Source of the DNA: Macrostomum lignano | Taxonomy: Eukaryota | NCBI GenBank assembly: GCA_002269645.1 | Contig: NIVC01000029.1 | Span: forward strand, 558,001 to 622,000 | DNA: 64,000 bases | Direction of reading: 5' to 3' | Made by a program: the position numbers and the translations under genes | Notes under the pieces: generated by a model | The model's input: the letters and a program-made list of their open reading frames with translations, nothing else | Told to the model about the DNA's origin: nothing | Databases searched by the model: none | Shown here: one piece after another, positions 1-63,910 of the stretch | Position numbering within the stretch: position 1 is the stretch's first letter | How the letters are laid out: each line of letters opens with the position of its first letter

Positions 1-40
1 TGTGAGAAATTTTTTTTTATTTTAGTTTCTACAGGGCTGT

Positions 41-1062: not shown

Positions 1063-1127
1063 GTGAGTTTCGTTTAATGATCTCAAAATAGCTAGCTGCA
1101 TGCAACTCAATTGCTGTAGAGAAGTTC

Positions 1128-5030: not shown

Positions 5031-5149
5031 TAAACGTTTTGACTTAGATTATCGCGTTGTAGTGCTTCAGAGAATTGACTTATTGACTTTTCAGGAAAAA
5101 TGAGCTAATGAGTATATCTAAGCTATGTAACTTGCTGTTTATTTTTCAG

Positions 5150-8092: not shown

Positions 8093-8284
8093 CTAAACGC
8101 TTTATGATTGCTAACACTAAGATTAAAAAGCATCTATTAGTTTAGCTGACAAGAAATACCTGTTCACTATCGATAGCATAGCGATGGCTTTTGGGGGCGG
8201 TCCAAGTTTGGGACGCCAAAATGAGTATGAGGGGCGCCAATTTTTAAGCTGGGGGTGCAAAAAACGTGTAGGGGGGGAATGCGA

Positions 8285-8700
8285 GTCGCCGTTTTAAAAA
8301 TGCTTCAATTTCTTGTATCTGTTTGATACAATTTCCATTTTAATAACTGTCGCCGTTTTAAAAATGCTTCAATTTCTTGTATCTGTTTGATACAATTTCC
8401 ATTTTAATAACTGTTGCCCTTTTAAAAATGCTTCAACTTCTTGTACTCCCTATGACTTTTTTAACTAATGCAATCCTAAGTTTGTTAAACGTGTAGTTTA
8501 AGAATGTACTTCCGGACTTAAATTAGTTTCAATGACTTTGCAGTTAGTTTAATTAGGTTTAAATCTTTTGCGTTAAGGCAAGCGAAATGATGCGGTATTT
8601 ATTTTCAAAATGCTTCAATTTCTTATATCTGTTTGATACAATTTCCATTTTAATAACTGTTGCCGTTTTAAAAATGCTTCAACTTCTTGTATCCCTGAGT
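8285..8700 (+). repeat. 64-bp subterminal direct repeats of element A
   Basis: GTCGCCGTTTTAAAAATGCTTCAATTTCTTG... occurs at 8285 and 8349, partially at ~8413, and again at ~8605-8695. Confidence 0.8.
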
Positions 8701-9654
8701 GTGCGTTGTTTTTCTTTCGTAACTAATGCAGTTTAACCCATAGTTTAGTAAAGCTAAATAAATTCGTTTGAACCAGGGTTTTTTTAATAAAATGGAATCG
8801 TAAACCTTTTTTATCTTCTGTTTCTTGAGAATTTCTGTTTTAATTAGCCCAAAATAACAGTTTGAAACTCATAAATTTTCTACAAAGAAAGAGGTCTAAC
8901 TAAACCAACTGTTTTTTTGCGGTCCACCTAACCCGGTCCCCAAAACGTAGTTAGTGAACCGCCACAGTTTCCACGAACTGGCTATTCCGTCAAGTTAACA
9001 AAAAGATAACCCTAGCTAGCCTTTCGCGTTGTCAAAACAGACTCTATTTTTTAACCGGAATTGCGTGGTCCACGTAACGCATTAACATAACTCAGGTCCC
9101 GCTAAACACACAGACAGTCGTAAGAGTGTCTGTCTGTCTGCCAGCCTAAGTGAGTCACTGTGTCTGCCAGTTCAAAACTTTGTTTACTGCTATACAGTGC
9201 TATACAAAGGCCATTCCAATCTTATTTTCAAGTGCTACTCCCGTTTTGAAATAGTTGTATACAAAAACAACCCATTGTATAGCCTGGGGTCACAATAAGC
9301 CGCTTTGTAAAGCGTTTTTTTCACTTAGCTGGGCTCATTTGGCCCAATAGCACCACAGTGTCTTATACGACTGAAGCGTTGATGCAGCTTGCAGCGACAC
9401 AAAGCACCCACAGCGCACTCAGCAGCTGTAGCAATATAAACCAGCATTATTTAGCCTTATAATGTTGTATAACAGATAAAAGTTTGGCAACAACATGATC
9501 GCATACAGTAAATACAGAAAGAGTAACACACAAATTTGGTCTAGATACTACCGACCAGTTATATAGAGAGAGCAAAATTGATTTGTTAGATTTTTAGTAC
9601 TATAATGATACTAAGCCGTCGTTTGTCTGTGTGGCCGCCATTTTAAATGAATTA

Positions 9655-20644: not shown

Positions 20645-20878
<234 letters not shown>

Positions 20879-21589
20879 TCTTACGACTGTCTGTGTGTTT
20901 AGCGGGACCTGAGTTATGTTAATGCGTTACGTGGACCACGCAATTCCGGTTAAAAAATAGAGTCTGTTTTGACAACGCGAAAGGCTAGCTAGGGTTATCT
21001 TTTTGTTAACTTGACGGAATAGCCAGTTCGGGGAAACTGTGGTGGTTCACTAACTACGTTTTGGGGACCGGGTTAGGTGGACCGCAAAAAAACAGTTGGT
21101 TTAGTTAGACCTCTTTCGTTGTAGAAAATTTATTGCTTTAAACTGTTCTTTTGAACTAATTAAAACAGAAATTCTCAAAAAGAACAGATAAAAGGGTTAC
21201 GACGTCATTTAATGAAAATATCCCAAGTTCAAACCAATTTATTTAGCATTATTAATCGGGTTAATCGGGTTAAACAAATGTACGATCGCATTAGTTAGTT
21301 GCGTCGCGTGAATACAAGAAGGTGAATGAAAATAAAGCATTTTGAAAATAAATACCGAATCATATCAAATACTAACTGTAAACTCATTAAAACTAATTTA
21401 GGTCAAAATGTATGCTTCAAATACATGTTAACAAACGGAAGATTCCATTAGTTAAAAAAGGTCATCCGAGTACGAGCCTACAAGAAGTTGAAGGGCATTT
21501 TTAATAACGACAAAAGTTCCTAAAACTGAAATTAAATTTATTTGACTACATCAGTCCTATTATACTGAATGAGTTAATGAGCAATCATA

Positions 21590-21922
21590 TGCTAAGCCAA
21601 TCATTTTACCGACTTTCATCTTTTCGTTCACGCAGATGATGGCTTAATCTTCTTATTTTTTCTACGAAATATTCTCCTGGACCTTCCCTGCCTCCGTGGT
21701 CCGGGACCGCTTCTGTTATTGATCTGTCATTGCCTCTCTCACGAATTTCAGCTTACCCAGCCATCGAATCCGCTTTCGTCAGCTCAGCTCTATGATGAAC
21801 CTTTCTATATTTCTCCTCAATTTAGTGGTTTGAATCTTCTTTTACAGTTCGTTTTAACCTTCATCTCGGTGAAACGCAGTCAGTCTCGTCGAGCTCAGGC
21901 GAACAAAATCAACCACAGGCTC
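21590..21922 (-). pseudogene. Degenerate exon remnant of element B (repeat-exon start joined to recombinase-tail-like fragments)
   Basis: The minus strand reads TTTGTAG|GAG CCT GTG GTT GAT TTT (EPVVDF, cf. EPEVEF) followed by a stop. AGCTGACGAAAGCGGATTCGATGG resembles 7549-7573. Confidence 0.6.
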
Positions 21923-21954
21923 CTACAAAGGTAGAAAATAAAATTAACTGACAA

Positions 21955-24900
21955 TCAAACAGACACAGAAATCTGTTCCAGTTGTGTCTGTAGGTTATGT
22001 GGACCACCTGAGAGCCAGAGCCTCAAACAGACAGAGAAATCTGTTCGAGTTGTGTCTGTAGGTTAGATGGACCAGCTATTCTACAGCACTTCTAGGCGAT
22101 AATCTGAGCCAGGAATCTCCAAGAGCCTCTCGTTACACATCCAGATGTTCTGCCTTGATGCTAGACTAGCCCACTTTCTAGGAATCTGTTCTGATTGCAT
22201 TCTAACAAACTGAAGCATTCTCGGCACTAAACTTTCTCGGCGGCTCTGAGAGCCAGAGCCTCAAACAGACAGAGAAATCTGTTCGAGTTGTGTCTGTAGG
22301 TTAGGTGGACCAGCTACTCCACAGCACTTCTAGGCGATAATCTGAGCCAGGAATCTCCGAGAGCCTCTCGTTACACATCCAGATGTTCTGCCTTGATGCT
22401 GGACTAGCTCACTTTCTAGGAATCTGTTCTGATTACGAGCTTCATTCTAACAAACTGAAGCATTCTCGGCACTAAACTTTCTCGGCGGCTCTGAGATCCA
22501 GAGCCTCAAACAGACAGAAATCTGTTCGAGTTGTGTCTGTAGGTTAGGTGGACCAGCTACTCCACAGCACTTCTAGGCGATAATCTGAGCCAGGAGTCTT
22601 CGAGAGACTTTCGTTACACATCCAGATGTTCTGCCTTGATGCTGGACTAGCTCACTTTCTAGGAATCTGTTCTGATTGCATTCTAACAAACTGAAGCATT
22701 CTCGGCACTAAACTTTCTCGGCGGCTCTAAGAGCCAGAGCCTAAACAGACAGAGAAATCTGCTCGAGTTGTGTCTGTAGGTTAGGTGGACCACCTTCTGA
22801 GAGACAAAGCCTCAAACAGACTGAGAGAGCTGCTTCAGTTCTGTCTGTAGGTTATGTGGACCATTTAAGAGCCAGAGCCTCAAACAGACAGAGAAATCTG
22901 TTCGAGTTGTGTCTGTAGGTTAGGTGGACCAGCTATTCTACAGCACTTCTAGGCGATAATCTGAGCCAGGAATCTCCGAGAGCCTCTCGTTACACATCCA
23001 GATGTTCTGCCTTGATGCTGGACTAGCTCACTTTCTAGGAATCTGTTCTGATTGCATTCTAACAAACTGAAGCATTCTCGGCACTAAACTTTCTCGGCGG
23101 CTCTGAGAGCCAGAGCCTCAAACAGACAGAGAAATCTGTTCGAGTTGAGTCTGTAGGTTAGGTGGACCAGCTACTCCACAGCACTTCTAGGCGATAATCT
23201 GAGCCAGGAGTCTTCGAGAGACTTTCGTTACACATCCAGATGTTCTGCCTTGATGCTGGACTAGCTCACTTTCTAGGAATCTGTTCTGATTACGAGCTTC
23301 ATTCTAACAAACTGAAGCATTCTCGGCACTAAACTTTCTCGGCGGCTCTGAGATCCAGAGCCTCAAACAGACAGAAATCTGTTCGAGTTGTGTCTGTAGG
23401 TTAGGTGGACCAGCTACTCCACAGCACTTCTAGGCGATAATCTGAGCCAGGAGTCTTCGAGAGACTTTCGTTACACATCCAGATGTTCTGCCTTGATGCT
23501 GGACTAGCTCACTTTCTAGGAATCTGTTCTGATTGCATTCTAACAAACTGAAGCATTTTCTGCACTAAACTTTCTCGGCGGCTCTAAGAGCCAGAGCCTA
23601 AACAGACAGAGAAATCTGCTCGAGTTGTGTCTGTAGGTTAGGTGGACCACCTTCTGAGAGACAAAGCCTCAAACAGACTGAGAGAGCTGCTTCAGTTCTG
23701 TCTGTAGGTTATGTGGACCATTTAAGAGCCAGAGCCTCAAACAGACAGAGAAATCTGTTCGAGTTGTGTCTGTAGGTTAGGTGGACCAGCTATTCTACAG
23801 CACTTCTAGGCGATAATCTGAGCCAGGAATCTCCGAGAGCCTCTCGTTACACATCCAGATGTTCTGCCTTGATGCTGGACTAGCTCACTTTCTAGGAATC
23901 TGTTCTGATTGCATTCTAACAAACTGAAGCATTCTCGGCACTAAACTTTCTCGGCGGCTCTGAGAGCCAGAGCCTCAAACAGACAGAAATCTGTTCGAGT
24001 TGTGTCTGTAGGTTAGGTGGACCAGCTACTCCACAGCACTTCTAGGCGATAATCTGAGCCAGGAATCTCGAGAGCCTCTCGTTACACATCCAGATGTTCT
24101 GCCTTGATGCTGGACTAGCTCACTTTCTAGGAATCTGTTCTGATTGCATTCTAACAAACTGAAGCATTCTCGCACTAAACTTTCTCGGCGGCTCTAAGAG
24201 CCAGAGCCTCAAACAGACAGAGAAATCTGTTCGAGTTGAGTCTGTAGGTTAGGTGGACCAGCTACTCCACAGCACTTCTAGGCGATAATCTGAGCCAGGA
24301 ATCTCCGAGAGCCTCTCGTTACACATCCAGACGTTCTGCCTTGATGCTGGACTAGCTCACTTTCTAGGAATCTGTTCTGATTACATTCTAACAAACTGAA
24401 GCATTCTCGGCACTAAACTTTCTCGGCGGCTCTGAGATCCAGAGCCTCAAACAGACAGAAATCTGTTCAAGTTGTGTCTGTAGGTTAGGTGGACCAGCTA
24501 CTCCACAGCACTTCTAGGCGATAATCTGAGCCAGGAGTCTTCGAGAGACTTTCGTTACACATCCAGATGTTCTGCCTTGATGCTGGACTAGCTCACTTTC
24601 TAGGAATCTGTTCTGATTGCATTCTAACAAACTGAAGCATTCTCGGCACTAAACTTTCTCGGCGGCTCTAAGAGCCAGAGCCTAAACAGACAGAGAAATC
24701 TGCTCGAGTTGTGTCTGTAGGTTAGGTGGACCACCTTCTGAGAGACAAAGCCTCAAACAGACTGAGAGAGCTGCTTCAGTTCTGTCTGTAGGTTATGTGG
24801 ACCATTTAAGAGCCAGAGCCTCAAACAGACAGAGAAATCTGTTCGAGTTGTGTCTGTAGGTTAGGTGGACCAGCTATTCTACAGCACTTCTAGGCGATAA

Positions 24901-27900
24901 TCTGAGCCAGGAATCTCCGAGAGCCTCTCGTTACACATCCAGATGTTCTGCCTTGATGCTGGACTAGCTCACTTTCTAGGAATCTGTTCTGATTGCATTC
25001 TAACAAACTGAAGCATTCTCGGCACTAAACTTTCTCGGCGGCTCTGAGAGCCAGAGCCTCAAACAGACAGAGAAATCTGTTCGAGTTGAGTCTGTAGGTT
25101 AGGTGGACCAGCTACTCCACAGCACTTCTAGGCGATAATCTGAGCCAGGAGTCTTCGAGAGACTTTCGTTACACATCCAGATGTTCTGCCTTGATGCTGG
25201 ACTAGCTCACTTTCTAGGAATCTGTTCTGATTACGAGCTTCATTCTAACAAACTGAAGCATTCTCGGCACTAAACTTTCTCGGCGGCTCTGAGATCCAGA
25301 GCCTCAAACAGACAGAAATCTGTTCGAGTTGTGTCTGTAGGTTAGGTGGACCAGCTACTCCACAGCACTTCTAGGCGATAATCTGAGCCAGGAGTCTTCG
25401 AGAGACTTTCGTTACACATCCAGATGTTCTGCCTTGATGCTGGACTAGCTCACTTTCTAGGAATCTGTTCTGATTGCATTCTAACAAACTGAAGCATTTT
25501 CTGCACTAAACTTTCTCGGCGGCTCTAAGAGCCAGAGCCTAAACAGACAGAGAAATCTGCTCGAGTTGTGTCTGTAGGTTAGGTGGACCACCTTCTGAGA
25601 GACAAAGCCTCAAACAGACTGAGAGAGCTGCTTCAGTTCTGTCTGTAGGTTATGTGGACCATTTAAGAGCCAGAGCCTCAAACAGACAGAGAAATCTGTT
25701 CGAGTTGTGTCTGTAGGTTAGGTGGACCAGCTATTCTACAGCACTTCTAGGCGATAATCTGAGCCAGGAATCTCCGAGAGCCTCTCGTTACACATCCAGA
25801 TGTTCTGCCTTGATGCTGGACTAGCTCACTTTCTAGGAATCTGTTCTGATTGCATTCTAACAAACTGAAGCATTCTCGGCACTAAACTTTCTCGGCGCCT
25901 CTGAGAGCCAGAGCCTCAAACAGACAGAGAAATCTGTTCGAGTTGAGTCTGTAGGTTAGGTGGACCAGCTACTCCACAGCACTTCTAGGCGATAATCTGA
26001 GCCAGGAATCTCCGAGAGCCTCTCGTTACACATCCAGATGTTCTGCCTTGATGCTGGACTAGCTCACTTTCTAGGAATCTGTTCTGATTACATTCTAACA
26101 AACTGAAGCATTCTCGGCACTAAACTTTCTCGGCGGCTCTGAGATCCAGAGCCTCAAACAGACAGAAATCTGTTCGAGTTGTGTCTGTAGGTTAGGTGGA
26201 CCAGCTACTCCACAGCACTTCTAGGCGATAATCTGAGCCAGGAGTCTTCGAGAGACTTTCGTTACACATCCAGATGTTCTGCCTTGATGCTGGACTAGCT
26301 CACTTTCTAGGAATCTGTTCTGATTGCATTCTAACAAACTGAAGCATTTTCTGCACTAAACTTTCTCGGCGGCTCTAAGAGCCAGAGCCTAAACAGACAG
26401 AGAAATCTGCTCGAGTTGTGTCTGTAGGTTAGGTGGACCACCTTCTGAGAGACAAAGCCTCAAACAGACTGAGAGAGCTGCTTCAGTTCTGTCTGTAGGT
26501 TATGTGGACCATTTAAGAGCCAGAGCCTCAAACAGACAGAGAAATCTGTTCGAGTTGTGTCTGTAGGTTAGGTGGACCAGCTATTCTACAGCACTTCTAG
26601 GCGATAATCTGAGCCAGGAATCTCCGAGAGCCTCTCGTTACACATCCAGATGTTCTGCCTTGATGCTGGACTAGCTCACTTTCTAGGAATCTGTTCTGAT
26701 TGCATTCTAACAAACTGAAGCATTCTCGGCACTAAACTTTCTCGGCGGCTCTGAGAGCCAGAGCCTCAAACAGACAGAGAAATCTGTTCGAGTTGAGTCT
26801 GTAGGTTAGGTGGACCAGCTACTCCACAGCACTTCTAGGCGATAATCTGAGCCAGGAGTCTTCGAGAGACTTTCGTTACACATCCAGATGTTCTGCCTTG
26901 ATGCTGGACTAGCTCACTTTCTAGGAATCTGTTCTGATTACGAGCTTCATTCTAACAAACTGAAGCATTCTCGGCACTAAACTTTCTCGGCGGCTCTGAG
27001 ATCCAGAGCCTCAAACAGACAGAAATCTGTTCGAGTTGTGTCTGTAGGTTAGGTGGACCAGCTACTCCACAGCACTTCTAGGCGATAATCTGAGCCAGGA
27101 GTCTTCGAGAGACTTTCGTTACACATCCAGATGTTCTGCCTTGATGCTGGACTAGCTCACTTTCTAGGAATCTGTTCTGATTGCATTCTAACAAACTGAA
27201 GCATTTTCTGCACTAAACTTTCTCGGCGGCTCTAAGAGCCAGAGCCTAAACAGACAGAGAAATCTGCTCGAGTTGTGTCTGTAGGTTAGGTGGACCACCT
27301 TCTGAGAGACAAAGCCTCAAACAGACTGAGAGAGCTGCTTCAGTTCTGTCTGTAGGTTATGTGGACCATTTAAGAGCCAGAGCCTCAAACAGACAGAGAA
27401 ATCTGTTCGAGTTGTGTCTGTAGGTTAGGTGGACCAGCTATTCTACAGCACTTCTAGGCGATAATCTGAGCCAGGAATCTCCGAGAGCCTCTCGTTACAC
27501 ATCCAGATGTTCTGCCTTGATGCTGGACTAGCTCACTTTCTAGGAATCTGTTCTGATTGCATTCTAACAAACTGAAGCATTCTCGGCACTAAACTTTCTC
27601 GGCGGCTCTGAGAGCCAGAGCCTCAAACAGACAGAAATCTGTTCGAGTTGTGTCTGTAGGTTAGGTGGACCAGCTACTCCACAGCACTTCTAGGCGATAA
27701 TCTGAGCCAGGAATCTCCGAGAGCCTCTCGTTACACATCCAGATGTTCTGCCTTGATGCTGGACTAGCTCACTTTCTAGGAATCTGTTCTGATTGCATTC
27801 TAACAAACTGAAGCATTCTCGGCACTAAACTTTCTCGGCGGCTCTAAGAGCCAGAGCCTCAAACAGACAGAGAAATCTGTTCGAGTTGAGTCTGTAGGTT

Positions 27901-30900
27901 AGGTGGACCAGCTACTCCACAGCACTTCTAGGCGATAATCTGAGCCAGGAATCTCCGAGAGCCTCTCGTTACACATCCAGACGTTCTGCCTTGATGCTGG
28001 ACTAGCTCACTTTCTAGGAATCTGTTCTGATTACATTCTAACAAACTGAAGCATTCTCGGCACTAAACTTTCTCGGCGGCTCTGAGATCCAGAGCCTCAA
28101 ACAGACAGAAATCTGTTCAAGTTGTGTCTGTAGGTTAGGTGGACCAGCTACTCCACAGCACTTCTAGGCGATAATCTGAGCCAGGAGTCTTCGAGAGACT
28201 TTCGTTACACATCCAGATGTTCTGCCTTGATGCTGGACTAGCTCACTTTCTAGGAATCTGTTCTGATTGCATTCTAACAAACTGAAGCATTCTCGGCACT
28301 AAACTTTCTCGGCGGCTCTAAGAGCCAGAGCCTAAACAGACAGAGAAATCTGCTCGAGTTGTGTCTGTAGGTTAGGTGGACCACCTTCTGAGAGACAAAG
28401 CCTCAAACAGACTGAGAGAGCTGCTTCAGTTCTGTCTGTAGGTTATGTGGACCATTTAAGAGCCAGAGCCTCAAACAGACAGAGAAATCTGTTCGAGTTG
28501 TGTCTGTAGGTTAGGTGGACCAGCTATTCTACAGCACTTCTAGGCGATAATCTGAGCCAGGAATCTCCGAGAGCCTCTCGTTACACATCCAGATGTTCTG
28601 CCTTGATGCTGGACTAGCTCACTTTCTAGGAATCTGTTCTGATTGCATTCTAACAAACTGAAGCATTCTCGGCACTAAACTTTCTCGGCGGCTCTGAGAG
28701 CCAGAGCCTCAAACAGACAGAGAAATCTGTTCGAGTTGAGTCTGTAGGTTAGGTGGACCAGCTACTCCACAGCACTTCTAGGCGATAATCTGAGCCAGGA
28801 GTCTTCGAGAGACTTTCGTTACACATCCAGATGTTCTGCCTTGATGCTGGACTAGCTCACTTTCTAGGAATCTGTTCTGATTACGAGCTTCATTCTAACA
28901 AACTGAAGCATTCTCGGCACTAAACTTTCTCGGCGGCTCTGAGATCCAGAGCCTCAAACAGACAGAAATCTGTTCGAGTTGTGTCTGTAGGTTAGGTGGA
29001 CCAGCTACTCCACAGCACTTCTAGGCGATAATCTGAGCCAGGAGTCTTCGAGAGACTTTCGTTACACATCCAGATGTTCTGCCTTGATGCTGGACTAGCT
29101 CACTTTCTAGGAATCTGTTCTGATTGCATTCTAACAAACTGAAGCATTTTCTGCACTAAACTTTCTCGGCGGCTCTAAGAGCCAGAGCCTAAACAGACAG
29201 AGAAATCTGCTCGAGTTGTGTCTGTAGGTTAGGTGGACCACCTTCTGAGAGACAAAGCCTCAAACAGACTGAGAGAGCTGCTTCAGTTCTGTCTGTAGGT
29301 TATGTGGACCATTTAAGAGCCAGAGCCTCAAACAGACAGAGAAATCTGTTCGAGTTGTGTCTGTAGGTTAGGTGGACCAGCTATTCTACAGCACTTCTAG
29401 GCGATAATCTGAGCCAGGAATCTCCGAGAGCCTCTCGTTACACATCCAGATGTTCTGCCTTGATGCTGGACTAGCTCACTTTCTAGGAATCTGTTCTGAT
29501 TGCATTCTAACAAACTGAAGCATTCTCGGCACTAAACTTTCTCGGCGCCTCTGAGAGCCAGAGCCTCAAACAGACAGAGAAATCTGTTCGAGTTGAGTCT
29601 GTAGGTTAGGTGGACCAGCTACTCCACAGCACTTCTAGGCGATAATCTGAGCCAGGAATCTCCGAGAGCCTCTCGTTACACATCCAGATGTTCTGCCTTG
29701 ATGCTGGACTAGCTCACTTTCTAGGAATCTGTTCTGATTACATTCTAACAAACTGAAGCATTCTCGGCACTAAACTTTCTCGGCGGCTCTGAGATCCAGA
29801 GCCTCAAACAGACAGAAATCTGTTCGAGTTGTGTCTGTAGGTTAGGTGGACCAGCTACTCCACAGCACTTCTAGGCGATAATCTGAGCCAGGAGTCTTCG
29901 AGAGACTTTCGTTACACATCCAGATGTTCTGCCTTGATGCTGGACTAGCTCACTTTCTAGGAATCTGTTCTGATTGCATTCTAACAAACTGAAGCATTTT
30001 CTGCACTAAACTTTCTCGGCGGCTCTAAGAGCCAGAGCCTAAACAGACAGAGAAATCTGCTCGAGTTGTGTCTGTAGGTTAGGTGGACCACCTTCTGAGA
30101 GACAAAGCCTCAAACAGACTGAGAGAGCTGCTTCAGTTCTGTCTGTAGGTTATGTGGACCATTTAAGAGCCAGAGCCTCAAACAGACAGAGAAATCTGTT
30201 CGAGTTGTGTCTGTAGGTTAGGTGGACCAGCTATTCTACAGCACTTCTAGGCGATAATCTGAGCCAGGAATCTCCGAGAGCCTCTCGTTACACATCCAGA
30301 TGTTCTGCCTTGATGCTGGACTAGCTCACTTTCTAGGAATCTGTTCTGATTGCATTCTAACAAACTGAAGCATTCTCGCACTAAACTTTCTCGGCGGCTC
30401 TAAGAGCCAGAGCCTCAAACAGACAGAGAAATCTGTTCGAGTTGAGTCTGTAGGTTAGGTGGACCAGCTACTCCACAGCACTTCTAGGCGATAATCTGAG
30501 CCAGGAATCTCCGAGAGCCTCTCGTTACACATCCAGATGTTCTGCCTTGATGCTGGACTAGCTCACTTTCTAGGAATCTGTTCTGATTACATTCTAACAA
30601 ACTGAAGCATTCTCGGCACTAAACTTTCTCGGCGGCTCTGAGATCCAGAGCCTCAAACAGACAGAAATCTGTTCGAGTTGTGTCTGTAGGTTAGGTGGAC
30701 CAGCTACTCCACAGCACTTCTAGGCGATAATCTGAGCCAGGAGTCTTCGAGAGACTTTCGTTACACATCCAGATGTTCTGCCTTGATGCTGGACTAGCTC
30801 ACTTTCTAGGAATCTGTTCTGATTGCATTCTAACAAACTGAAGCATTCTCGGCACTAAACTTTCTCGGCGGCTCTAAGAGCCAGAGCCTAAACAGACAGA

Positions 30901-33900
30901 GAAATCTGCTCGAGTTGTGTCTGTAGGTTAGGTGGACCACCTTCTGAGAGACAAAGCCTCAAACAGACTGAGAGAGCTGCTTCAGTTCTGTCTGTAGGTT
31001 ATGTGGACCATTTAAGAGCCAGAGCCTCAAACAGACAGAGAAATCTGTTCGAGTTGTGTCTGTAGGTTAGGTGGACCAGCTATTCTACAGCACTTCTAGG
31101 CGATAATCTGAGCAGGAATCTCCGAGAGCCTCTCGTTACACATCCAGATGTTCTGCCTTGATGCTGGACTAGCTCACTTTCTAGGAATCTGTTCTGATTG
31201 CATTCTAACAAACTGAAGCATTCTCGGCACTAAACTTTCTCGGCGGCTCTGAGAGCCAGAGCCTCAAACAGACAGAGAAATCTGTTCGAGTTGAGTCTGT
31301 AGGTTAGGTGGACCAGCTACTCCACAGCACTTCTAGGCGATAATCTGAGCCAGGAGTCTTCGAGAGACTTTCGTTACACATCCAGATGTTCTGCCTTGAT
31401 GCTGGACTAGCTCACTTTCTAGGAATCTGTTCTGATTACGAGCTTCATTCTAACAAACTGAAGCATTCTCGGCACTAAACTTTCTCGGCGGCTCTGAGAT
31501 CCAGAGCCTCAAACAGACAGAAATCTGTTCGAGTTGTGTCTGTAGGTTAGGTGGACCAGCTACTCCACAGCACTTCTAGGCGATAATCTGAGCCAGGAGT
31601 CTTCGAGAGACTTTCGTTACACATCCAGATGTTCTGCCTTGATGCTGGACTAGCTCACTTTCTAGGAATCTGTTCTGATTGCATTCTAACAAACTGAAGC
31701 ATTTTCTGCACTAAACTTTCTCGGCGGCTCTAAGAGCCAGAGCCTAAACAGACAGAGAAATCTGCTCGAGTTGTGTCTGTAGGTTAGGTGGACCACCTTC
31801 TGAGAGACAAAGCCTCAAACAGACTGAGAGAGCTGCTTCAGTTCTGTCTGTAGGTTATGTGGACCATTTAAGAGCCAGAGCCTCAAACAGACAGAGAAAT
31901 CTGTTCGAGTTGTGTCTGTAGGTTAGGTGGACCAGCTATTCTACAGCACTTCTAGGCGATAATCTGAGCCAGGAATCTCCGAGAGACTTTCGTTACACAT
32001 CCAGATGTTCTGCCTTGATGCTGGACTAGCTCACTTTCTAGGAATCTGTTCTGATTGCATTCTAACAAACTGAAGCATTCTCGGCACTAAACTTTCTCGG
32101 CGGCTCTAAGAGCCAGAGCCTAAACAGACAGAGAAATCTGCTCGAGTTGTGTCTGTAGGTTAGGTGGACCACCTTCTGAGAGACAAAGCCTCAAACAGAC
32201 TGAGAGAGCTGCTTCAGTTCTGTCTGTAGGTTATGTGGACCATTTAAGAGCCAGAGCCTCAAACAGACAGAGAAATCTGTTCGAGTTGTGTCTGTAGGTT
32301 AGGTGGACCAGCTATTCTACAGCACTTCTAGGCGATAATCTGAGCCAGGAATCTCCGAGAGCCTCTCGTTACACATCCAGATGTTCTGCCTTGATGCTGG
32401 ACTAGCTCACTTTCTAGGAATCTGTTCTGATTGCATTCTAACAAACTGAAGCATTCTCGGCACTAAACTTTCTCGGCGGCTCTGAGAGCCAGAGCCTCAA
32501 ACAGACAGAGAAATCTGTTCGAGTTGAGTCTGTAGGTTAGGTGGACCAGCTACTCCACAGCACTTCTAGGCGATAATCTGAGCCAGGAGTCTTCGAGAGA
32601 CTTTCGTTACACATCCAGATGTTCTGCCTTGATGCTGGACTAGCTCACTTTCTAGGAATCTGTTCTGATTACGAGCTTCATTCTAACAAACTGAAGCATT
32701 CTCGGCACTAAACTTTCTCGGCGGCTCTGAGATCCAGAGCCTCAAACAGACAGAAATCTGTTCGAGTTGTGTCTGTAGGTTAGGTGGACCAGCTACTCCA
32801 CAGCACTTCTAGGCGATAATCTGAGCCAGGAGTCTTCGAGAGACTTTCGTTACACATCCAGATGTTCTGCCTTGATGCTGGACTAGCTCACTTTCTAGGA
32901 ATCTGTTCTGATTGCATTCTAACAAACTGAAGCATTTTCTGCACTAAACTTTCTCGGCGGCTCTAAGAGCCAGAGCCTAAACAGACAGAGAAATCTGCTC
33001 GAGTTGTGTCTGTAGGTTAGGTGGACCACCTTCTGAGAGACAAAGCCTCAAACAGACTGAGAGAGCTGCTTCAGTTCTGTCTGTAGGTTATGTGGACCAT
33101 TTAAGAGCCAGAGCCTCAAACAGACAGAGAAATCTGTTCGAGTTGTGTCTGTAGGTTAGGTGGACCAGCTATTCTACAGCACTTCTAGGCGATAATCTGA
33201 GCCAGGAATCTCCGAGAGCCTCTCGTTACACATCCAGATGTTCTGCCTTGATGCTGGACTAGCTCACTTTCTAGGAATCTGTTCTGATTGCATTCTAACA
33301 AACTGAAGCATTCTCGGCACTAAACTTTCTCGGCGCCTCTGAGAGCCAGAGCCTCAAACAGACAGAGAAATCTGTTCGAGTTGAGTCTGTAGGTTAGGTG
33401 GACCAGCTACTCCACAGCACTTCTAGGCGATAATCTGAGCCAGGAATCTCCGAGAGCCTCTCGTTACACATCCAGATGTTCTGCCTTGATGCTGGACTAG
33501 CTCACTTTCTAGGAATCTGTTCTGATTGCATTCTAACAAACTGAAGCATTCTCGGCACTAAACTTTCTCGGCGGCTCTAAGAGCCAGAGCCTCAAACAGA
33601 CAGAGAAATCTGTTCGAGTTGAGTCTGTAGGTTAGGTGGACCAGCTACTCCACAGCACTTCTAGGCGATAATCTGAGCCAGGAATCTCCGAGAGCCTCTC
33701 GTTACACATCCAGATGTTCTGCCTTGATGCTGGACTAGCTCACTTTCTAGGAATCTGTTCTGATTACATTCTAACAAACTGAAGCATTCTCGGCACTAAA
33801 CTTTCTCGGCGGCTCTGAGATCCAGAGCCTCAAACAGACAGAAATCTGTTCGAGTTGTGTCTGTAGGTTAGGTGGACCAGCTACTCCACAGCACTTCTAG

Positions 33901-36900
33901 GCGATAATCTGAGCCAGGAGTCTTCGAGAGACTTTCGTTACACATCCAGATGTTCTGCCTTGATGCTGGACTAGCTCACTTTCTAGGAATCTGTTCTGAT
34001 TGCATTCTAACAAACTGAAGCATTTTCTGCACTAAACTTTCTCGGCGGCTCTAAGAGCCAGAGCCTAAACAGACAGAGAAATCTGCTCGAGTTGTGTCTG
34101 TAGGTTAGGTGGACCACCTTCTGAGAGACAAAGCCTCAAACAGACTGAGAGAGCTGCTTCAGTTCTGTCTGTAGGTTATGTGGACCATTTAAGAGCCAGA
34201 GCCTCAAACAGACAGAGAAATCTGTTCGAGTTGTGTCTGTAGGTTAGGTGGACCAGCTATTCTACAGCACTTCTAGGCGATAATCTGAGCCAGGAATCTC
34301 CGAGAGCCTCTCGTTACACATCCAGATGTTCTGCCTTGATGCTGGACTAGCTCAATTTCTAGGAATCTGTTCTGATTGCATTCTAACAAACTGAAGCATT
34401 CTCGGCACTAAACTTTCTCGGCGGCTCTGAGAGCCAGAGCCTCAAACAGACAGAGAAATCTGTTCGAGTTGTGTCTGTAGGTTAGGTGGACCAGCTACTC
34501 CACAGCACTTCTAGGCGATAATCTGAGCCAGGAATCTCCGAGAGCCTCTCGTTACACATCCAGATGTTCTGCCTTGATGCTGGACTAGCTCACTTTCTAG
34601 GAATCTGTTCTGATTGCATTCTAACAAACTGAAGCATTCTCGGCACTAAACTTTCTCGGCGGCTCTAAGAGCCAGAGCCTCAAACAGACAGAGAAATCTG
34701 TTCGAGTTGTGTCTGTAGGTTAGGTGGACCAGCTATTCTACAGCACTTCTAGGCGATAATCTGAGCCAGGAATCTCCGAGAGCCTCTCGTTACACATCCA
34801 GATGTTCTGCCTTGATGCTGGACTAGCTCACTTTCTAGGAATCTGTTCTGATTGCATTCTAACAAACTGAAGCATTCTCGGCACTAAACTTTCTCGACGG
34901 CTCTAAGAGCCAGAGCCTCAAACAGACAGAGAAATCTGTTCGAGTTGAGTCTGTAGGTTAGGTGGACCAGCTACTCCACAGCACTTCTAGGCGATAATCT
35001 GAGCCAGGAATCTCCGAGAGCCTCTCGTTACACATCCAGATGTTCTGCCTTGATGCTGGACTAGCTCACTTTCTAGGAATCTGTTCTGATTGCATTCTAA
35101 CAAACTGAAGCATTCTCGGCACTAAACTTTCTCGGCGGCTCTGAGAGCCAGAGCCTCAAACAGACAGAGAAATCTGTTCGAGTTGTGTCTGTAGGTTAGG
35201 TGGACCAGCTACTCCACAGCACTTCTAGGCGATAATCTGAGCCAGGAGTCTTCGAGAGACTTTCGTTACACATCCAGATGTTCTGCCTTGATGCTGGACT
35301 AGCTCACTTTCTAGGAATCTGTTCTGATTGCATTCTAACAAACTAAAGCATTTTCTGCACTAAACTTTCTCGGCGGCTCTAAGAGCCAGAGGCTAAACAG
35401 ACAGAGAAATCTGCTCGAGTTGTGTCTGTAGGTTAGGTGGACCACCTTCTGAGAGACAAAGCCTCAAACAGACTGAGAGAGCTGCTTCAGTTCTGTCTGT
35501 AGGTTATGTGGACCATTTAAGAGCCAGAGCCTCAAACAGACAGAGAAATCTGTTCGAGTTGTGTCTGTAGGTTAGGTGGACCAGCTATTCTACAGCACTT
35601 CTAGGCGATAATCTGAGCCAGGAATCTCCGAGAGCCTCTCGTTACACATCCAGATGTTCTGCCTTGATGCTGGACTAGCCCACTTTCTAGGAATCTGTTC
35701 TGATTGCATTCTAACAAACTGAAGCATTCTCGGCACTAAACTTTCTCGGCGGCTCTGAGAGCCAGAGCCTCAAACAGACAGAGAAATCTGTTCGAGTTGA
35801 GTCTGTAGGTTAGGTGGACCAGCTACTCCACAGCACTTCTAGGCGATAATCTGAGCCAGGAATCTCCGAGAGCCTCTCGTTACACATCCAGATGTTCTGC
35901 CTTGATGCTGGACTAGCTCACTTTCTAGGAATCTGTTCTGATTACGAGCTACATTCTAACAAACTGAAGCATTCTCGGCACTAAACTTTCTCGGCGGCTC
36001 TGAGATCCAGAGCCTCAAACAGACAGAAATCTGTTCGAGTTGTGTCTGTAGGTTAGGTGGACCAGCTACTCCACAGCACTTCTAGGCGATAATCTGAGCC
36101 AGGAGTCTTCGAGAGACTTTCGTTACACATCCAGATGTTCTGCCTTGATGCTGGACTAGCTCACTTTCTAGGAATCTGTTCTGATTGCATTCTAACAAAC
36201 TGAAGCATTCTCGGCACTAAATTTTCTCGGCGGCTCTGAGAGCCAGAGCCTCAAACAGACAGAGAAATCTGTTCGAGTTGTGTCTGTAGGTTAGGTGGAC
36301 CAGCTACTCCACAGCACTTCTAGGCGATAATCTGAGCCAGGAGTCTTCGAGAGACTTTCGTTACACATCCAGATGTTCTGCCTTGATGCTGGACTAGCTC
36401 ACTTTCTAGGAATCTGTTCTGATTGCATTCTAACAAACTGAAGCATTTTCTGCACTAAACTTTCTCGGCGGCTCTGAGAGCCAGAGCCTAAACAGACAGA
36501 GAAATCTGCTCGAGTTGTGTCTGTAGGTTAGGTGGACCACCTTCTGAGAGACAAAGCCTCAAACAGACTGAGAGAGCTGCTTCAGTTCTGTCTGTAGGTT
36601 ATGTGGACCATTTAAGAGCCAGAGCCTCAAACAGACAGAGAAATCTGTTCGAGTTGTGTCTGTAGGTTAGGTGGACCAGCTATTCTACAGCACTTCTAGG
36701 CGATAATCTGAGCCAGGAATCTTCAAGAGACTTTCGTTACACATCCAGATGTTCTGCCTTGATGCTGGACTAGCTCACTTTCTAGGAATCTGTTCTGATT
36801 GCATTCTAACAAACTGAAGCATTCTCGGCACTAAACTTTCTCGGCGGCTCTGAGAGCCAGAGCCTCAAACAGACAGAGAAATCTGTTCGAGTTGTGTCTG

Positions 36901-37400
36901 TAGGTTAGGTGGACCAGCTACTCCACAGCACTTCTAGGCGATAATCTGAGCCAGGAATCTCCGAGAGCCTCTCGTTACACATCCAGATGTTCTGCCTTGA
37001 TGCTGGACTAGCTCACTTTCTAGGAATCTGTTCTGATTGCATTCTAACAAACTGAAGCATTCTCGGCACTAAATTTTCTCGGCGGCTCTGAGAGCCAGAG
37101 CCTCAAACAGACAGAGAAATCTGTTCGAGTTGTGTCTGTAGGTTAGGTGGACCAGCTACTCCACAGCGCTTCTAGGCGATAATCTGAGCCAGGAGTCTTC
37201 GAGAGACTTTCGTTACACATCCAGATGTTCTGCCTTGATGCTGGACTAGCTCACTTTCTAGGAATCTGTTCTGATTGCATTCTAACAAACTGAAGCATTC
37301 TCGGCACTAAACTTTCTCAGCGGCTCTGAGAGCCAGAGCCTCAAACAGACAGAGAAATCTGTTCGAGTTGTGTCTGTAGGTTAGGTGGACCAGCTTCTCT
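21955..37400 (-). repeat. 15.4-kb higher-order satellite: ~238-bp monomers with 71+68-bp short-unit pairs every 3-5 monomers
   Basis: It is the diverged reverse complement of element A's long and short units. There are 16 short-unit pairs, mostly at ~850- or ~1086-bp spacing, and about 55 long monomers (estimate). Confidence 0.97.
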
Positions 37401-37460
37401 ACAGCAATTGAGTTGCAGGCCCTGCAGCTAGCTACTTTGAGATCATCAAACGAAACTCAC

Positions 37461-37600
37461 TTTTCTGGACTCGGTGTCGACGGATTTGCGAGCAGACTGA
37501 TGATTTTCACCAGGCGATGCGGCTTCTTCGATTTCGCAGTGGCTTTTTGCGACGGTGTTTTTTTAGTTTTTATTTTAGGCTTGGCGTCCTTTTTTGCGGG
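37461..37600 (-). pseudogene. Exon remnant of element B homologous to the 3' end of element A's exons (…VDTESRK|GTGAGT)
   Basis: Reverse complement of the 997-1062 and 1560-1633 segments, with the donor at 37460. The upstream part is Lys-rich and lacks the DBF4 zinc finger. Confidence 0.7.
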
Positions 37601-39142
37601 TCATCATATCTTGGTTGTAGATTACAGTTTTTGGCACAATAAATTTATATATGGATGAAACTTGGAGTAAGGATTAACATTAGACCCATTAAGTATAAAA
37701 AAACCGTTCTAATCTATACAATTGTAATCCTTTAGAGTTGTATAGTATGGATTATAAGTACTTTCTTTTAAACTGTCTGTGTCTGGTCTCACTACGCCAT
37801 GGTTTACGTGGACCACCCGCTTAGACATTATATATCCCTCTCTCCACTGTCTTACCTTCAGAACGCTTGCGGGTTTCCTATTGGCTGCGGTCGGTCCCAT
37901 TGTTGGGGTGGATCTATCCTCCTAAGTGTTAACCAGCCAATTATAGAAAGGGAGGTCTGTCTGTCTGTCTGTTCCAACCCTATACTCCTGCACATGTGTT
38001 TACGTGGACCAAACAGACAGTGAGTGTTAGGCTGACTGTTAATGCGTTCTTAGTTTTACTGGGACCGCAATCAAGTCGACCTTTTGCTAGAGAGTCAGAG
38101 ACCCGATCGCTAGCTAAAAGGCCCTTCTTAATTGCGTCCTCTTGATCAAATCTTTTGCATGTACATGTATGAATTGTCCTTTTCAATTAGGTAAATTGCA
38201 TCTTCAACTTTGCACTTGAAAGGCTGCAGCTTAGGATCTTCTTCTTCCAAAATTGGAGGAGGATAGAACAGGATATCCCATAGTGTTTAGGATAGAATTG
38301 GCAAGCACTTAATTCATGAAGTTGCTATTTTCTTCTTGTGTAATGGTAGAGCCTCAGAAATTCGCATTTACACAGTGTGGCTATCAAGGACCACTGGGAG
38401 TTCTTGAGAAGTCATTGAAGAATACTATTTAGGCTTCACTTAAATATATTTCTTGTCTCGGAGTCTTTATCGTTTGATCTGGTTAGCGAATTGGATTTCT
38501 TTACGTTGGTGTCTTACTCTGTGAGTCTGTGCTCAGAGTACGATACCGGAATTGCTGGAACTGAGCTAATTAAATGGAGTTTAAAGTTTACTGTATCAAA
38601 TTCATTTCGCATACGAGGTTTCAGAATTTTTAATTAACCTGCGCACCTACTTGAATGTCAAAGAACTGAACGCATATTGTTTTAAAGCCAGTAGCGGTCA
38701 TAATATGATGCCAACATAGCCCTTTGTTCGTAAGGTAATGATCTGTAAAAAATTCAGTTTTGCATTGAATCTATGCTTAATAACTGCTATACACAAACAG
38801 ACACAAACAGACACAAACAGACACAAACAGACGATTTTCGAAAAATTTTCTAAAATTTTTCGGTTTACGTGGACCAGACTCGCTCGGTTTAGGTAGACCA
38901 GGCTGGAGGTCCAGCTAAACTGAAATGCAAATAACTTTGGAAAAAACCATGCTAGACATCCCAAAATTGCTTAAGCCTTTCTTGACCCGCCTGACATTAA
39001 TGTGAGATCCTCATCAACGTCTTAACCCCACCAGAGACAAAATTATTTGGTGGTCCACCTAAGTGGTCTACCTACACCGGGTGGTCCAGCTAACGAGGCT
39101 ACTGAACTTCCAAAAAGTCCACGTAAACACACAGACAGTAGA

Positions 39143-39345
<203 letters not shown>

Positions 39346-40830: not shown

Positions 40831-41094
40831 GGGGTTTATTAATCATAATTTCTAATACAGAAATGAGTCATCACATTCACATGTAAATCTTTAGGTAAAT
40901 GTAGTTTGGTTTCCATGGTAGACATGGTAGACAAAGATAGTAGTGGGTGTATATTTATATGAGCAAATATATACGCCCGTAAAAGAGCACATGGACTGAC
41001 TCTAGGAGGAAAGGTAAACATACACATGCAGATAGTGGAATGCGCAGTACGTTTTGTGTAAAAATTAAATAATACATGCTTTATTAAGTAAATA

Positions 41095-41239
41095 ATAAAC
41101 GCCGTTTAATTCACATTCTGTGGTTAGAATGTCCGAGGCTGCGTTTAATGGTCTCGAGGCAAGCGTAGCGAGCGGAGGACCATTGATTGTAGCCGAGGAT
41201 ATTCTAACCATAGACTATGATGAATTAAACGGCGTTTAT
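41095..41239. mobile_element. 145-bp palindromic MITE-like element
   Basis: Perfect 19-bp terminal inverted repeat ATAAACGCCGTTTAATTCA / TGAATTAAACGGCGTTTAT. The interior is also partly self-complementary (TGGTTAGAAT..ATTCTAACCA; AATGGTC..GACCATT). Confidence 0.6.
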
Positions 41240-42118
41240 CATATATTAAATTCGATTGCTCCTGATTTCGAGGAGATTATATGATATAATATCCTAGTTT
41301 TTGTTAAAAATTACCACAGACAACACATTCCCGGCTCAGAATAGTACAATTTTTTAACGATTAAATAAGCAATCGTATTTTATATCACGCCACACCACCA
41401 GCAAACGTACGCACTACGCAGTGCGTTAGCTAAGTCTGTGCTAGTTGCTAAACTAAGGCAGTTACTGTTTCACAATTTAACAAGTGCTTAATGCTTATTC
41501 AGCAAACTAATTCGACAGTCCACTTGGTAAACTCTTTTTCTAGCTCTATCTTCTATTAAATTGAGCGTTGTTTGAAAGTTTGTTTGAGAAAATTGTCAAG
41601 GAGTTTAGTAGGACTACTAAACGAAAGGAAAAAACTAAAAAATTCTAATTCTAACCTCTCTTAGGCGTCGTACAAAATTGGCTGTACGAAATGAATAAGC
41701 GCGTGGTATGATGCACGTTTACGAATTACGATCATGCGAACTCCGAACTACAACTACAACAAGTTCGTCAATCTTGCACACACAAAAGCCCTTTCAATGG
41801 CGTGAGTGGAAAGAGTGCGGCGTACTAAAGATGGTGTTTTTAACCGTTTGTTCGCTGGCGAGAGAAAACTGGTGCGAACCTCTCCACACACCGATGGAGG
41901 GGGAATCCCTTGCGAAGTGGGGCCTGCACGCTCCGCTCGTTTGCTGGGGGTTCCCTCAAAGTTCGCGAGAACCTCAAAATGGAACGAGATGAGGGGGTGG
42001 TGGCGTGGTTGGTCTATGCAATGGACAGAATCGCGGGCCGCTGAAAAATGGTTCCACCGCCTACCCAAGGACGTTTATTTTGTTCGTTCATCTTATTCAT
42101 CCAATAGATAGTGGAGGA

Positions 42119-45800: not shown

Positions 45801-48800
45801 GAGGTGTCATTTTAAAGCTGAGACATGCGTATAGAGTAAATCGAAGCATTTTTAAATCCAGTATCTGCTTTTAGGCTGCTACGATCAAAACAATTTTAGT
45901 CAACAGTAAAGCGATTTCTAATCAGAGCTAGTGTTGCTAAGCAATTTTTAAATCAATGTATGTCAGAAGGATTTTTACTTCAGTTAATAAATTAAAGCTT
46001 ATTCGACTCGACGCCCAACACTTGCGTAAGTATTTGCCAAAAAGATGGTTGAAGCGGGTCAATTTTGTTTAAAGTTACAGACGATCGTTTCGAATGTCTG
46101 TCTGAATATCTCTCATGAAACCCTCACATTCTAAACAAGACTCAAGAGAAATTGCACTCTGAGCCTTAAAATCGCACCTTGAAATTTGGCACAAGGTGCG
46201 ATTTCGCACCTTATCTCTGGCGAAAAAAAAACCCAGTTGGCGCCAATTCCTTTGACTATGCGCCACTTCATTTTGAGTTGGCGCTAATTCATTTGACTAT
46301 GCGCCACTTCATTTTGAGTTGGCGCTAATTCATTTGACTATGAACCAGTTTCATTTGTTGGCTTCTAGTCAAAGTTCATTAGTTGTGGCGCCAGAACCGT
46401 GGCCGCTAGCAAGTCGCGCCAAATCTCATGAACTATCATCAATGCGACTTACTGCAAGGGGGGGTGCAGCCCACCGAGGCTGCTTAATTGAATTTTCGTT
46501 TTCCCAACTCACACTCATCTCCCCGAACTCGAACTCAGGCGGACAGCGATGAAGACAACAGGCGTCAGTTAGCGCAGCCTCCTCGCCTCTCTGTCTGTCG
46601 AAAAATCCTTTTCGGACTGGCCGCCCCGCCGCTACAGATGACTAGCAATATTTGCGGCTTCTTTTTCAGCATCTTCCTACTAGAAGTAGTGAAAATGTCG
46701 CCAGTCTACGTGTCAATTATCACATTCTCTGGTCGAGCCTGGGACGCCATAACCGACCCGCTGGTTGGTCAGCTGGTGTTTCGCACAGACACGCGGCTGG
46801 GCCGAACCAAGCCTTGGCTGATTGGGGCCAGCCTGATGGGCCCAGTTTCATTCTTTCTGATGTGGATCGGTCTGCCAGCCATCAATGTTGATGGCGATGA
46901 GAGCAAAAATGTGCAGACATTTTTCTACTATTTTGCCTGCTATTTGGCCTATTGTGCCATGATTACGGTGAGGAAATCATATATTGACATTTGACAATAA
47001 GTTTAAGGCAGGGTTTTTTTCGCTGACTGGCGCTAGGATGCGAGATTGCATCGAAGGTCCAATTTCAAAGTGATGATGTGAAGCATCCTCATTGCATAAT
47101 CTAGTTTGAGGCGATTTTAAATATCAGGGAGGCCAGATTGGGTGTCAGAGGAGTTTTATGGCGTGTCAGGTGGTTAGATTGGGTGTCAGAGGAGTTTTAT
47201 GGCGTGTCAGGTGGTCAGATTGGGTGTCAGAGGAGTTTTATGGGGTGTCAGATGCTCAGATTGGGTGTCAGAGGAGTTTTATGGCGTGTCAGGTGGTCAG
47301 ATTGGGTGTCAGGGGAGTTTTATGGCGTGTCAGGTGGTCAGATTGGGTGTCAGAGGAGTTTTATGGCGTGTCAGGTGGTCAGATTGGGTGTCAGAGGAGT
47401 TTTATGGCGTGTCAGGTGGTCAGATTGGGTGTCAGAGGAGTTTTATGACGTGTCAGGTGGTCAGATTGGGTGTCAGAGGAGTTTTATGACGTGTCAGGTG
47501 GTCAGATTGGGTGTCAGGGGAGTTTTATGGCGTGTCAGGTGGTCAGATTGGGTGTCAGAGGAGTTTTATGGCGCCCTATAGGAAAAAGTTGTAAAACCGT
47601 GGACGGTGTCCGGCGCACTTTTGAAATTTTTCTAAAGTGCAGCGCGCGCACAGGCGCATCGCCTGCGCGCGCGCTGCCCTTTCTTACTGGCTGCTGTTCT
47701 AGCAAATACATATACATGGAAATGGGTATAATACCTCTGTTGAAGGGGCTTATACACTCGTAATTTATTAAGCTTAGAGATGTTCCAAAAATTCAATTTC
47801 AATTTTCCAAATTTTTTTAGAGCGAATTTCAATTTCGAAAAAAATTTAGAAGTGAAAATTTTGGTAGTGTCTAAAAAGTCGCTAAAAATAAACTAATTTC
47901 TACTACATATACATGTATTACTTTTTGGCTAAGCAGTAAATTGAAAGTAAAAAAGTAAGTGTTAATCATACTAAACTTTGTTTTTCTGAATTATGATTTC
48001 GGGAAATTTCAATTTTGATTTTGGAAAGTTAGCGAATTTTGATTTCGACGAAACTGCAGATCTTTCGGAACATCTCTCTAATAATCCTAAAGCGCGGTAA
48101 AATAGTTTGACTCTTTTCTAAAGCGCGCGTCCGCGGGTTTTTAACATTTATTCCATAGTATGGCGTGTCAGGTGGTCAGATTGGGTGTCAGAGGAGTTTT
48201 ATGGCGTGTCAGGTGGCCAGATTGGGTATTAGAGGAGTCGTATGGGGTGTCAATGTTAGGTGGTAAAATTGGGTATGTTAGGGCTGCATATTTCAGTGTT
48301 TCAATGGTCAGAGGTGTCAATATGGCTTATTATTCGAAACTGTCAAAGTTACATGTAATTCATAGTTCAGACGATCCAAAAGCATTACTACATTTTTGTA
48401 GACAATAGCTACAATCCAGTGTTTTTCCACACCTTAACAGTGCTACCACGTGCCCTACACCTCGTCAACCGTGCTCATATCAAATAATCCCAGCGACAAA
48501 GACGGCGCCACAGCCTCTAGAATCGGTTTCGAACTGATCTTCACCATCATTGGCAGCGGAGTTTTTGGCGTAATTATCAGTTCGAAACGAGTCAACGAGA
48601 AATGTCAGGCAGGTGGCCTGAAGCCCAACTTCACTGAGGAACAGCTGTTCCAAGAGGTAATTCGAAGATTAGGGTTGTGAAGATTCGGGTTTGTGAAGAT
48701 TATAGTTTGTGAAGATTAGGGTTCGTGAAGATTCGGGTTTGTGAAGATTAGAGTTTGTGAAGATTAGGGTTTGTGAAGATTAGGGTTCGTGAAGATTCGG

Positions 48801-56726: not shown

Positions 56727-63910
<7,184 letters not shown>

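Follow-up and report, generated by a model that had tools for sequence, protein, structure and literature searches.

Tandem arrays of the element's own end motif fill the introns of a CryptonV-like transposon family in Macrostomum lignano

The integrases of phage lambda and of Tn916 recognise, by a separate domain, a handful of repeated arm-type sites that lie near both ends and are not cleaved; the arrays described here hold from tens to more than 100 candidate sites. Among transposons, the closest precedent is Galileo and the Foldback elements, whose repeats carry extra transposase sites. In Galileo, extra THAP/transposase sites are located in tandem repeats within the long inverted ends (PMC3688188, available part), and repeats of Tetris have seeded a satellite (PMC4079207, available part). 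As far as these parts go, the elements are alike in their internal tandem repeats with extra terminal binding sites, putative in our case, in the proposed gain in specificity or efficiency, and in the capacity to seed satellites. They differ in that Galileo and Foldback elements have P/Mutator-type transposases and repeats in long inverted ends, whereas the family described here, designated family 1, has a tyrosine recombinase and one-directional, mid-element arrays in spliced introns of the enzyme gene, in elements of up to 25 kb. In addition, family 1 and its kin have re-made the arrays with different units in each lineage. The principle of extra end-motif sites in repeats is known, and it is new in a barely studied transposon group. 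CryptonV elements, animal tyrosine-recombinase DNA transposons which insert specifically in microsatellites (PMC8869645, available part), are merely listed in the accessible text of PMC5753468. For Cryptons A, F, I and S, the available part of Kojima and Jurka (2011; PMC3212892) gives no terminal inverted repeats and direct repeats of 4-6 bp or none, and for the animal Cryptons A and I no C-terminal domain. Recombinases of Nimavirus target simple repeats too, and are described as not close to Cryptons in the accessible part of PMC10871703. In the literature searched, arrays of this kind were unreported for tyrosine-recombinase transposons, and binding sites or regulation were undescribed for any animal Crypton-type element; Repbase Reports and the supplements of PMC3212892, which may describe CryptonV ends or repeats, lay outside that search.

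The window, i.e., the whole stretch of 64,000 nucleotides that was analysed, contains two mobile copies, A and B, both belonging to family 1, a tyrosine-recombinase DNA transposon with approximately 93 genome copies, eight of them with the enzyme. Element A is of the autonomous type and is represented by its 3' part (1-9129, + strand); judged from ends and sequence, it starts about 7.2 kb to the left of the window and measures 16.3 kb in total. All its features are on the + strand. The exon map begins with DBF4-like exons within the recombinase gene (35-1062; Pfam zf-DBF, E 3.5e-9), which carry a one-base frameshift in this copy, and continues with five introns containing 71- and 238-bp monomers (1063-5149), between which a 75-aa Ser/Arg linker exon recurs four times in phase 0 (1409-1633, 2113-2337, 3191-3415 and 3891-4115). 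The main exon (5630-7895) encodes a zinc-finger-like part and the tyrosine recombinase, assigned by fold matches and conserved residues, and is followed by a C-terminal three-helix domain with a homeodomain/Myb-type fold (7892-8092; pLDDT 92, structure matches). The 3' subterminal motifs and the 3' end, placed by motif search and end loci, occupy 8921-9129. Beyond the recombinase gene, further long ORFs that might encode a reverse transcriptase were absent from the window part of the element and from the exon map. Element B (20875-39145, - strand; exact end matches) is non-autonomous, 18.3 kb long and embedded in an (ACAG)n microsatellite; recombinase and DBF4-like sequence are both absent. 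According to sequence and unit lengths, its single GT-AG intron of about 15.5 kb (21923-37460, - strand) is filled by an array with 89 motif cassettes. The 5' end of B (39117-39145, + strand) consists of an outward 22-bp arm, four fixed bases and a trinucleotide shared with the target, the same at 20/20 loci, while the end-locus comparison resolved the 3' end (20875-20908, - strand) into a 22-bp arm, nine fixed bases and the shared trinucleotide. Motif search placed six motif copies, four outward and two inward, in a 5' subterminal cluster (38865-39126) and further copies at the 3' side (20927-21083, - strand). Two copies flank CCAAT-like and TATA-like boxes (37804-38010, - strand), from their sequence a likely promoter, and the same layout was recognised by eye in families C, 2 and 3.

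Family-1 elements carry at each end a 22-bp imperfect inverted arm, both outward-facing. The genome contains 94 exact matches to the 5' arm and 128 to the 3' arm, about 36 of which belong to a sister family, C. The exact end matches and the recombinase core, identical in all eight enzyme copies, characterise dispersed young copies with fixed ends. GTCT units adjoined the ends at 20/20 5' loci and 30/30 3' loci examined, which indicates insertion into microsatellites. At the same loci the bases next to the arm were invariant as far as the shared TGT and variable past it, which points to a probable crossover within TGT. The family agrees with CryptonV in being an animal DNA transposon with a tyrosine recombinase and a microsatellite target, as described in the available part of the CryptonV source, and we call it CryptonV-like. 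With Cryptons A, F, I and S it shares the tyrosine recombinase and the excess of non-autonomous over autonomous copies, and the circular intermediate proposed for them may apply here too (PMC3212892, available part). Unlike these it has 22-bp imperfect inverted arms and a 3-bp shared crossover, and unlike Cryptons A and I a conserved C-terminal helix-turn-helix domain. The microsatellite flanks frequently contained a TAGT interruption (16 of 50 end loci, counted without a control set; e.g., window 20738-20869), possibly a footprint or a preferred target.

The satellite in question fills introns and repeats in tandem the 11-bp end motif of the very element that carries it. Searched with one mismatch allowed, GGTCCACNTAA occurred 89 times in 21955-37400, always on the element (-) strand, and 29 times in the window part of A; the whole of A contains 52 A-type monomers. 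An earlier note on this DNA had proposed that every unit carries a motif resembling the terminus, with roughly 85-90 copies in B and several dozen in A, and both statements agree with the counts: 89/89 units of B carry it in one direction. The six subterminal sites noted at the same time are all real (8921, 9067, 37804, 38000, 38865 and 39052), and further ones were found at 20927, 21073, 38889, 38908, 39083 and 39116. The supposed unit of 71 bp had to be revised: B is built mainly of a 238-bp unit, and its units of 238/237/236/243, 68 and 71 bp are mixed in a higher-order arrangement. Intervals between motifs in B were only 68, 71, 236, 237, 238 or 243 bp, i.e., one motif per unit. The exact 22-mer was present in 56/89 B units, and the others differed chiefly at motif position 8. 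What stays constant in the monomers is a cassette composed of the 11-bp motif, 3 nt, ACAGAC, 21 nt and GTCTGT, and both of its hexamers correspond to the repeat unit of the target and to the arm's core. The 21-nt spacing of ACAGAC and GTCTGT was kept in 664/794 B-type, 300/329 A-type and 62/63 family-C cassettes, and the hexamer pair is absent from monomers of families 2 and 3. These inverted hexamers bear out one half of the hairpin suggested earlier; folding itself was no better than in shuffled sequence (z from +1.5 to -1.9 in 5/5 monomers), and a hairpin function was therefore rejected. In the genome as a whole, the motif search gave 8167 matches and the reversed control 2411, an excess of about 5,750. 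Exact 22-mers numbered 3194, of which about 2,800 are expected from 93 copies, which would leave little room for a free-standing satellite, and all of the first 100 listed among these 3194 were inside elements. The motif is probably an accessory site and not the cutting site.

The array introns appear to be spliced out, which, like the probable accessory nature of the motif, had escaped the earlier note. In A, the arrays are each bounded by a GT donor and an AG acceptor and separate phase-0 copies of the linker exon; the gene in B is broken, its whole array forms one intron, and the donor and acceptor match those of A. Splicing was seen in contigs from runs of three studies, for which the label RNA is a guess. 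In runs X13 and X19 a contig passes from a linker-exon donor directly to the exon at window 5150, and in X11 and X19 the join to the next linker exon was seen, while X6 gave no such exon join among 20 of 21 ends listed. The X runs also contain monomer sequence, so unspliced or DNA material is present too. Altogether eight phase-0 copies of the Ser/Arg-rich linker exon, 72-75 aa long, were counted in A (window 1409-4115 and L021:4540-9223), duplicated along with the motif-bearing introns; duplication of exon plus intron, with other sequences, was also found in families C, 2 and 3. An insertion of 1.8 kb (L021:5256-7066) lies in one intron of A; it has inverted ends, shows a target duplication of 8 bp and by eye resembles a hAT element, and copy C1677 has a gap equal to it in size.

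Whether the likeness between monomers and termini exceeds chance was addressed with the ends alone. In an unguided count, the top words in non-array ends were GGTCCA and ACAGAC in families 1 and C, GGTCCA in family 2 and GTCCCA in family 3. Matrices learned solely from such ends (15, 16, 11 and 7 sites), with 300 shuffles as the null, were then compared with the repeats. This comparison of termini with monomers, proposed by the earlier note, came out in its favour: at p 0.003-0.01, ends-only matrices matched 7/7 monomers from families 1, C and 2. The matrix of family 3 matched no monomer of another family but did match two of the three family-3 repeats, the repeated intron (p 0.003) and the 38-bp satellite (p 0.01), whereas the 48-bp satellite matched none of the matrices. 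At the same loci, 71 repeat units of unrelated sequence served as controls, and none reached the matrix threshold.

The comparison across lineages is the strongest evidence for the link between arrays and ends, as judged from sequence. Family C, with 36 copies and 36 5' ends among the exact matches, shares an exact 22-bp 3' arm with family 1, no recombinase was present in any copy fetched, and it is probably moved by the family-1 enzyme. The family-C loci were L109-L118 and L126-L130; in L109 another 3' end lies 2.6 kb beyond the first. In its 88-bp monomer the cassette and the 21-nt spacing are kept while spacer and tail have diverged: 22 of 23 motif-plus-hexamer positions are identical to family 1, whereas the remainder of the cassette agrees at 17 or 12 of 26 positions (Fisher p 0.009 and 0.0001), and the tails are unrelated. 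The motif differs at position 7 in family C and at position 8 in the short units of B, both of which vary among end sites. Family 2, with nine copies counted by ends and 59% protein identity to family 1 in the core, has an intronic monomer of 83-85 bp, which has only the motif in common with that of family 1 (rest p 0.96 and 0.98). Family 3, at 38% protein identity, has a different end motif (four of seven copies fetched), and this word of its own recurs in a 655-bp exon-plus-intron repeat and in the 38-bp satellite. A complete relative from another animal, L196, carries its own end motif in 9/10 monomers of a 26-bp satellite (p<=0.03), the seed having been picked after viewing the locus, although it also ranks first among the 5-mers of the ends once microsatellite words are set aside. 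Both family 3 and L196 insert into (TG)n. Among 80 relative loci from metagenomes, the 53 of at least 4.5 kb were examined and ten, picked by eye, were taken further; a repeated motif of this sort was found in 8 of the 53, a number drawn from fragments and a choice by eye. In seven relatives from other animals, L132, L133, L135, L136, L137, L139 and L145, yet another word, GAG(C/T)TCAC, is repeated 4-13 times near the ends, and in L133 and L136 the copies sit in tandem repeats. A degenerate recombinase locus at 64% identity, C2193, had no motif array within 10 kb. In sum, the units found across five lineages, of 26, 38, 71, 83, 88, 238 and 655 bp, all contain the motif of the respective lineage. 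The earlier proposal that the monomers are multimerised recombinase-binding sites gains good support from this comparison, the repeats of each family bearing its own end motif, and binding is what the sequences would predict.

It could be supposed that the motif is a binding site for a transcription factor or chromatin protein of the host, with the arrays acting as enhancer or silencer. The motif often lies inside a 13-17-bp palindrome, the flank of which presumably resembles GLI/Zic-type sites. We nevertheless regard a host factor as very unlikely, given that different lineages of the element have different motifs (family 3, L196, L133/L136) and that the motif is located directly against the recombining ends. 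That it is bound by a protein of the element itself we consider likely from these sequence comparisons.

The recombinase model (pLDDT 82) matched the folds of Cre, XerH and lambda integrase (best E 5.8e-3, probability 1.0), and the best 29 structure matches listed were all recombinase or integrase-fold entries. Residues R317, K366, R437, H463, H468 and Y472 were invariant or nearly so in 39 aligned sequences. The database protein identical to that of A is from Macrostomum lignano, and relatives at 30-35% identity occur in corals, echinoderms, molluscs, beetles and fish. Pfam assigned neither the recombinase nor the C-terminal domain to a family, the best scores among relatives being Phage_integrase at E 0.021 and Myb at E 0.092, and a search for homologues of the C-terminal domain yielded nothing beyond the protein itself. 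This conserved domain of 66 aa, modelled as three helices at pLDDT 92, matched homeodomains and Myb domains on DNA best (Z 7.8, rmsd 2.3, 58 aligned residues), a common fold. Its third, recognition helix is nearly identical in families 1 and 2, which share the motif, and different in family 3, a match that comprises three families only and tracks overall relatedness. From the model, the C-terminal domain is a candidate reader of the motif, and the zinc-finger parts are equal candidates. The DBF4-like module of 305 aa (L096:7583-8611; window 35-1062) scored E 3.3e-16 against zf-DBF in an intact copy, and in 6/8 autonomous copies splicing joins it in frame to the rest of the recombinase gene; it might link transposition to replication origins. 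Candidate host genes at 40% identity to it are on C723, C889 and C948. Family 2 has chromodomain-like exons at the N-terminus (L053:4530-4812; Pfam E 0.41 on one exon) and family 3 a possible reader domain (L065:1010-1246) with no Pfam hit, so each lineage seems to have a different N-terminal add-on.

Retention of the arrays was followed in 30 fetched family-1 copies, 20 of them chosen for being shorter than 10 kb. Seven autonomous copies had 41-56 monomers, and arrays of 16-100 monomers were present in 23/23 gene-less ones. They were likewise present in 12/12 family-C copies, including the seven shortest that could be paired (3-141 monomers in nine), and in 5/5 deletion copies of family 2 (23-72 monomers). 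Over all families, 40/40 gene-less copies examined retain an array. The 63 end-paired family-1 copies measured 4.9-25 kb and none was near the 2.9-kb backbone, with 100 of 128 3' ends listed.

What is observed comprises the host element with its ends and target, the location of the arrays in introns, the match of motif to family and the arrays retained in gene-less copies. On this basis we put forward, at about even confidence, that the array is a landing pad of accessory sites for what is likely the recombinase protein, which helps a copy to capture scarce enzyme. Recognition of the motif would fall to a DNA-binding domain separate from the catalytic core, with the C-terminal homeodomain/Myb-type domain the likeliest, just as bacterial integrases read their arm sites through a domain other than the catalytic one. 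An accessory site used at both ends and beside the promoter would also have been present in an early intron, where each lineage multiplied it by ordinary tandem duplication with its own unit length. Growth and shrinkage of the arrays probably proceed through ordinary unequal exchange or slippage, not through the recombinase. The array intron being spliced out, sites can be stacked at no protein cost. The array would gather protein on its own copy, most importantly on gene-less copies. In the competition for enzyme from about eight autonomous copies among approximately 130 of families 1 and C, deletion derivatives without an array would be at a disadvantage to array-bearing copies. As a second use, the motif near the promoter may let the protein damp its own gene. 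Three uses had been suggested in advance, i.e., titration of the enzyme, aid to synapsis and circle re-integration; recruitment or aid to synapsis fits best because 40/40 gene-less copies kept arrays, the role itself being read from sequence, and titration or self-limitation is possible. Several findings count against a landing pad: the 48-bp satellite of family 3 is without the motif, one family-C copy has only 3-4 monomers, the genome is rich in intronic minisatellites (96 rows in 64 kb), a repeated motif appeared in only 8 of the 53 longer relative loci, and the arrays of B gave no sign of selection on the motif. Nor were larger arrays younger, nearest-neighbour distance rising with length (rho 0.48, p 0.02, 23 copies). 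More tentatively still, and with some doubt, the introns may be self-made, tunable arrays of enzyme sites, in which motif and reader co-evolve, copies compete by array size and arrays set the transposition rate. If so, kilobases of protein-bound satellite DNA throughout the genome would be owed to selection on a selfish element and not to drift.

A brake would be the opposite use, in which bound protein represses the promoter and intron-wide transcription while some 5,700 extra sites titrate the enzyme. The motif copies flanking CCAAT-/TATA-like boxes in four families (by eye), the position of the arrays just downstream of this promoter-like region, 1.5-2.1 kb from the 5' end, and the genome-wide motif excess all speak for it, as does the regulation of Hsmar1 through binding-site competition (PMC3687335, available part). 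But repression of a dead gene brings gene-less copies no gain, yet all kept their arrays, and according to the same part of that source titration by non-autonomous copies need not lower transposition. A brake appears unlikely. Nor do we think it probable that the arrays are a by-product, in which a one-motif intron expanded neutrally, perhaps via slippage provoked by bound protein or by the sequence, with no role in transposition. Such expansion would suit a minisatellite-rich genome and the motif-free satellite of family 3, and it would suit the fast turnover: arrays differ by more than 3 kb between backbones 0.15% apart, with the reservation that array lengths may include assembly error. There is also no clear purifying signal inside the arrays. 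Rare variants in B were equally frequent in motif/hexamers and tail, the motif was not preferentially conserved between the A and B 238-mers (P 0.44), and 0/19 common variants touched any of the 26 positions of motif and hexamers (chance about 0.1). Against neutral expansion stand the seven unit lengths from 26 to 655 bp in five lineages, each with the motif of its lineage, the cassette geometry kept while tails diverged, and the total lack of array-free copies among the 63 sized.

It had further been suggested that the arrays are products of repeated circle re-integration, with monomers as pseudo-attachment sites into which circles made by the recombinase re-insert. The monomers of families 1 and C do carry the target hexamer as an inverted pair, the distance from the motif end to the second hexamer is 30 nt in both monomer and predicted junction, a coincidence left unexplained, and one monomer aligned to the predicted junction at p 0.002. 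However, the other three of four junction comparisons were not significant, and families 2 and 3 lack the hexamer pair. The end-to-end junction of the predicted circle was absent from the assembly, and contigs of four runs, a material that drops rare forms, showed none among 9 of 12 loose ends listed. Four-gamete exchange signals in B, searched between neighbouring variant pairs, fell in the unit tail (intervals 63-88, 190-196 and 206-227), for which reason site-specific crossover at the cassette was rejected. Circle re-integration is accordingly highly improbable as the source of the arrays.

The sequence supplies a candidate site, a candidate reader domain and natural motif-protein pairs in several lineages, together with natural array sizes from 3 to more than 140 in a young family with intact enzyme copies. 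Three questions thereby come within reach of experiment: by what means a eukaryotic tyrosine recombinase locates its ends and its microsatellite target, whether selection acts on internal transposon repeats, and how protein-binding satellites originate. Outside the two elements, the window contains a 166-bp imperfect palindrome (41084-41249), possibly a MITE, and two host genes resembling, by eye, an MFS transporter (46488-52569, + strand) and a GCN5/PCAF-type acetyltransferase (56727-62766, - strand). In both host genes nearly every intron carries a different minisatellite.
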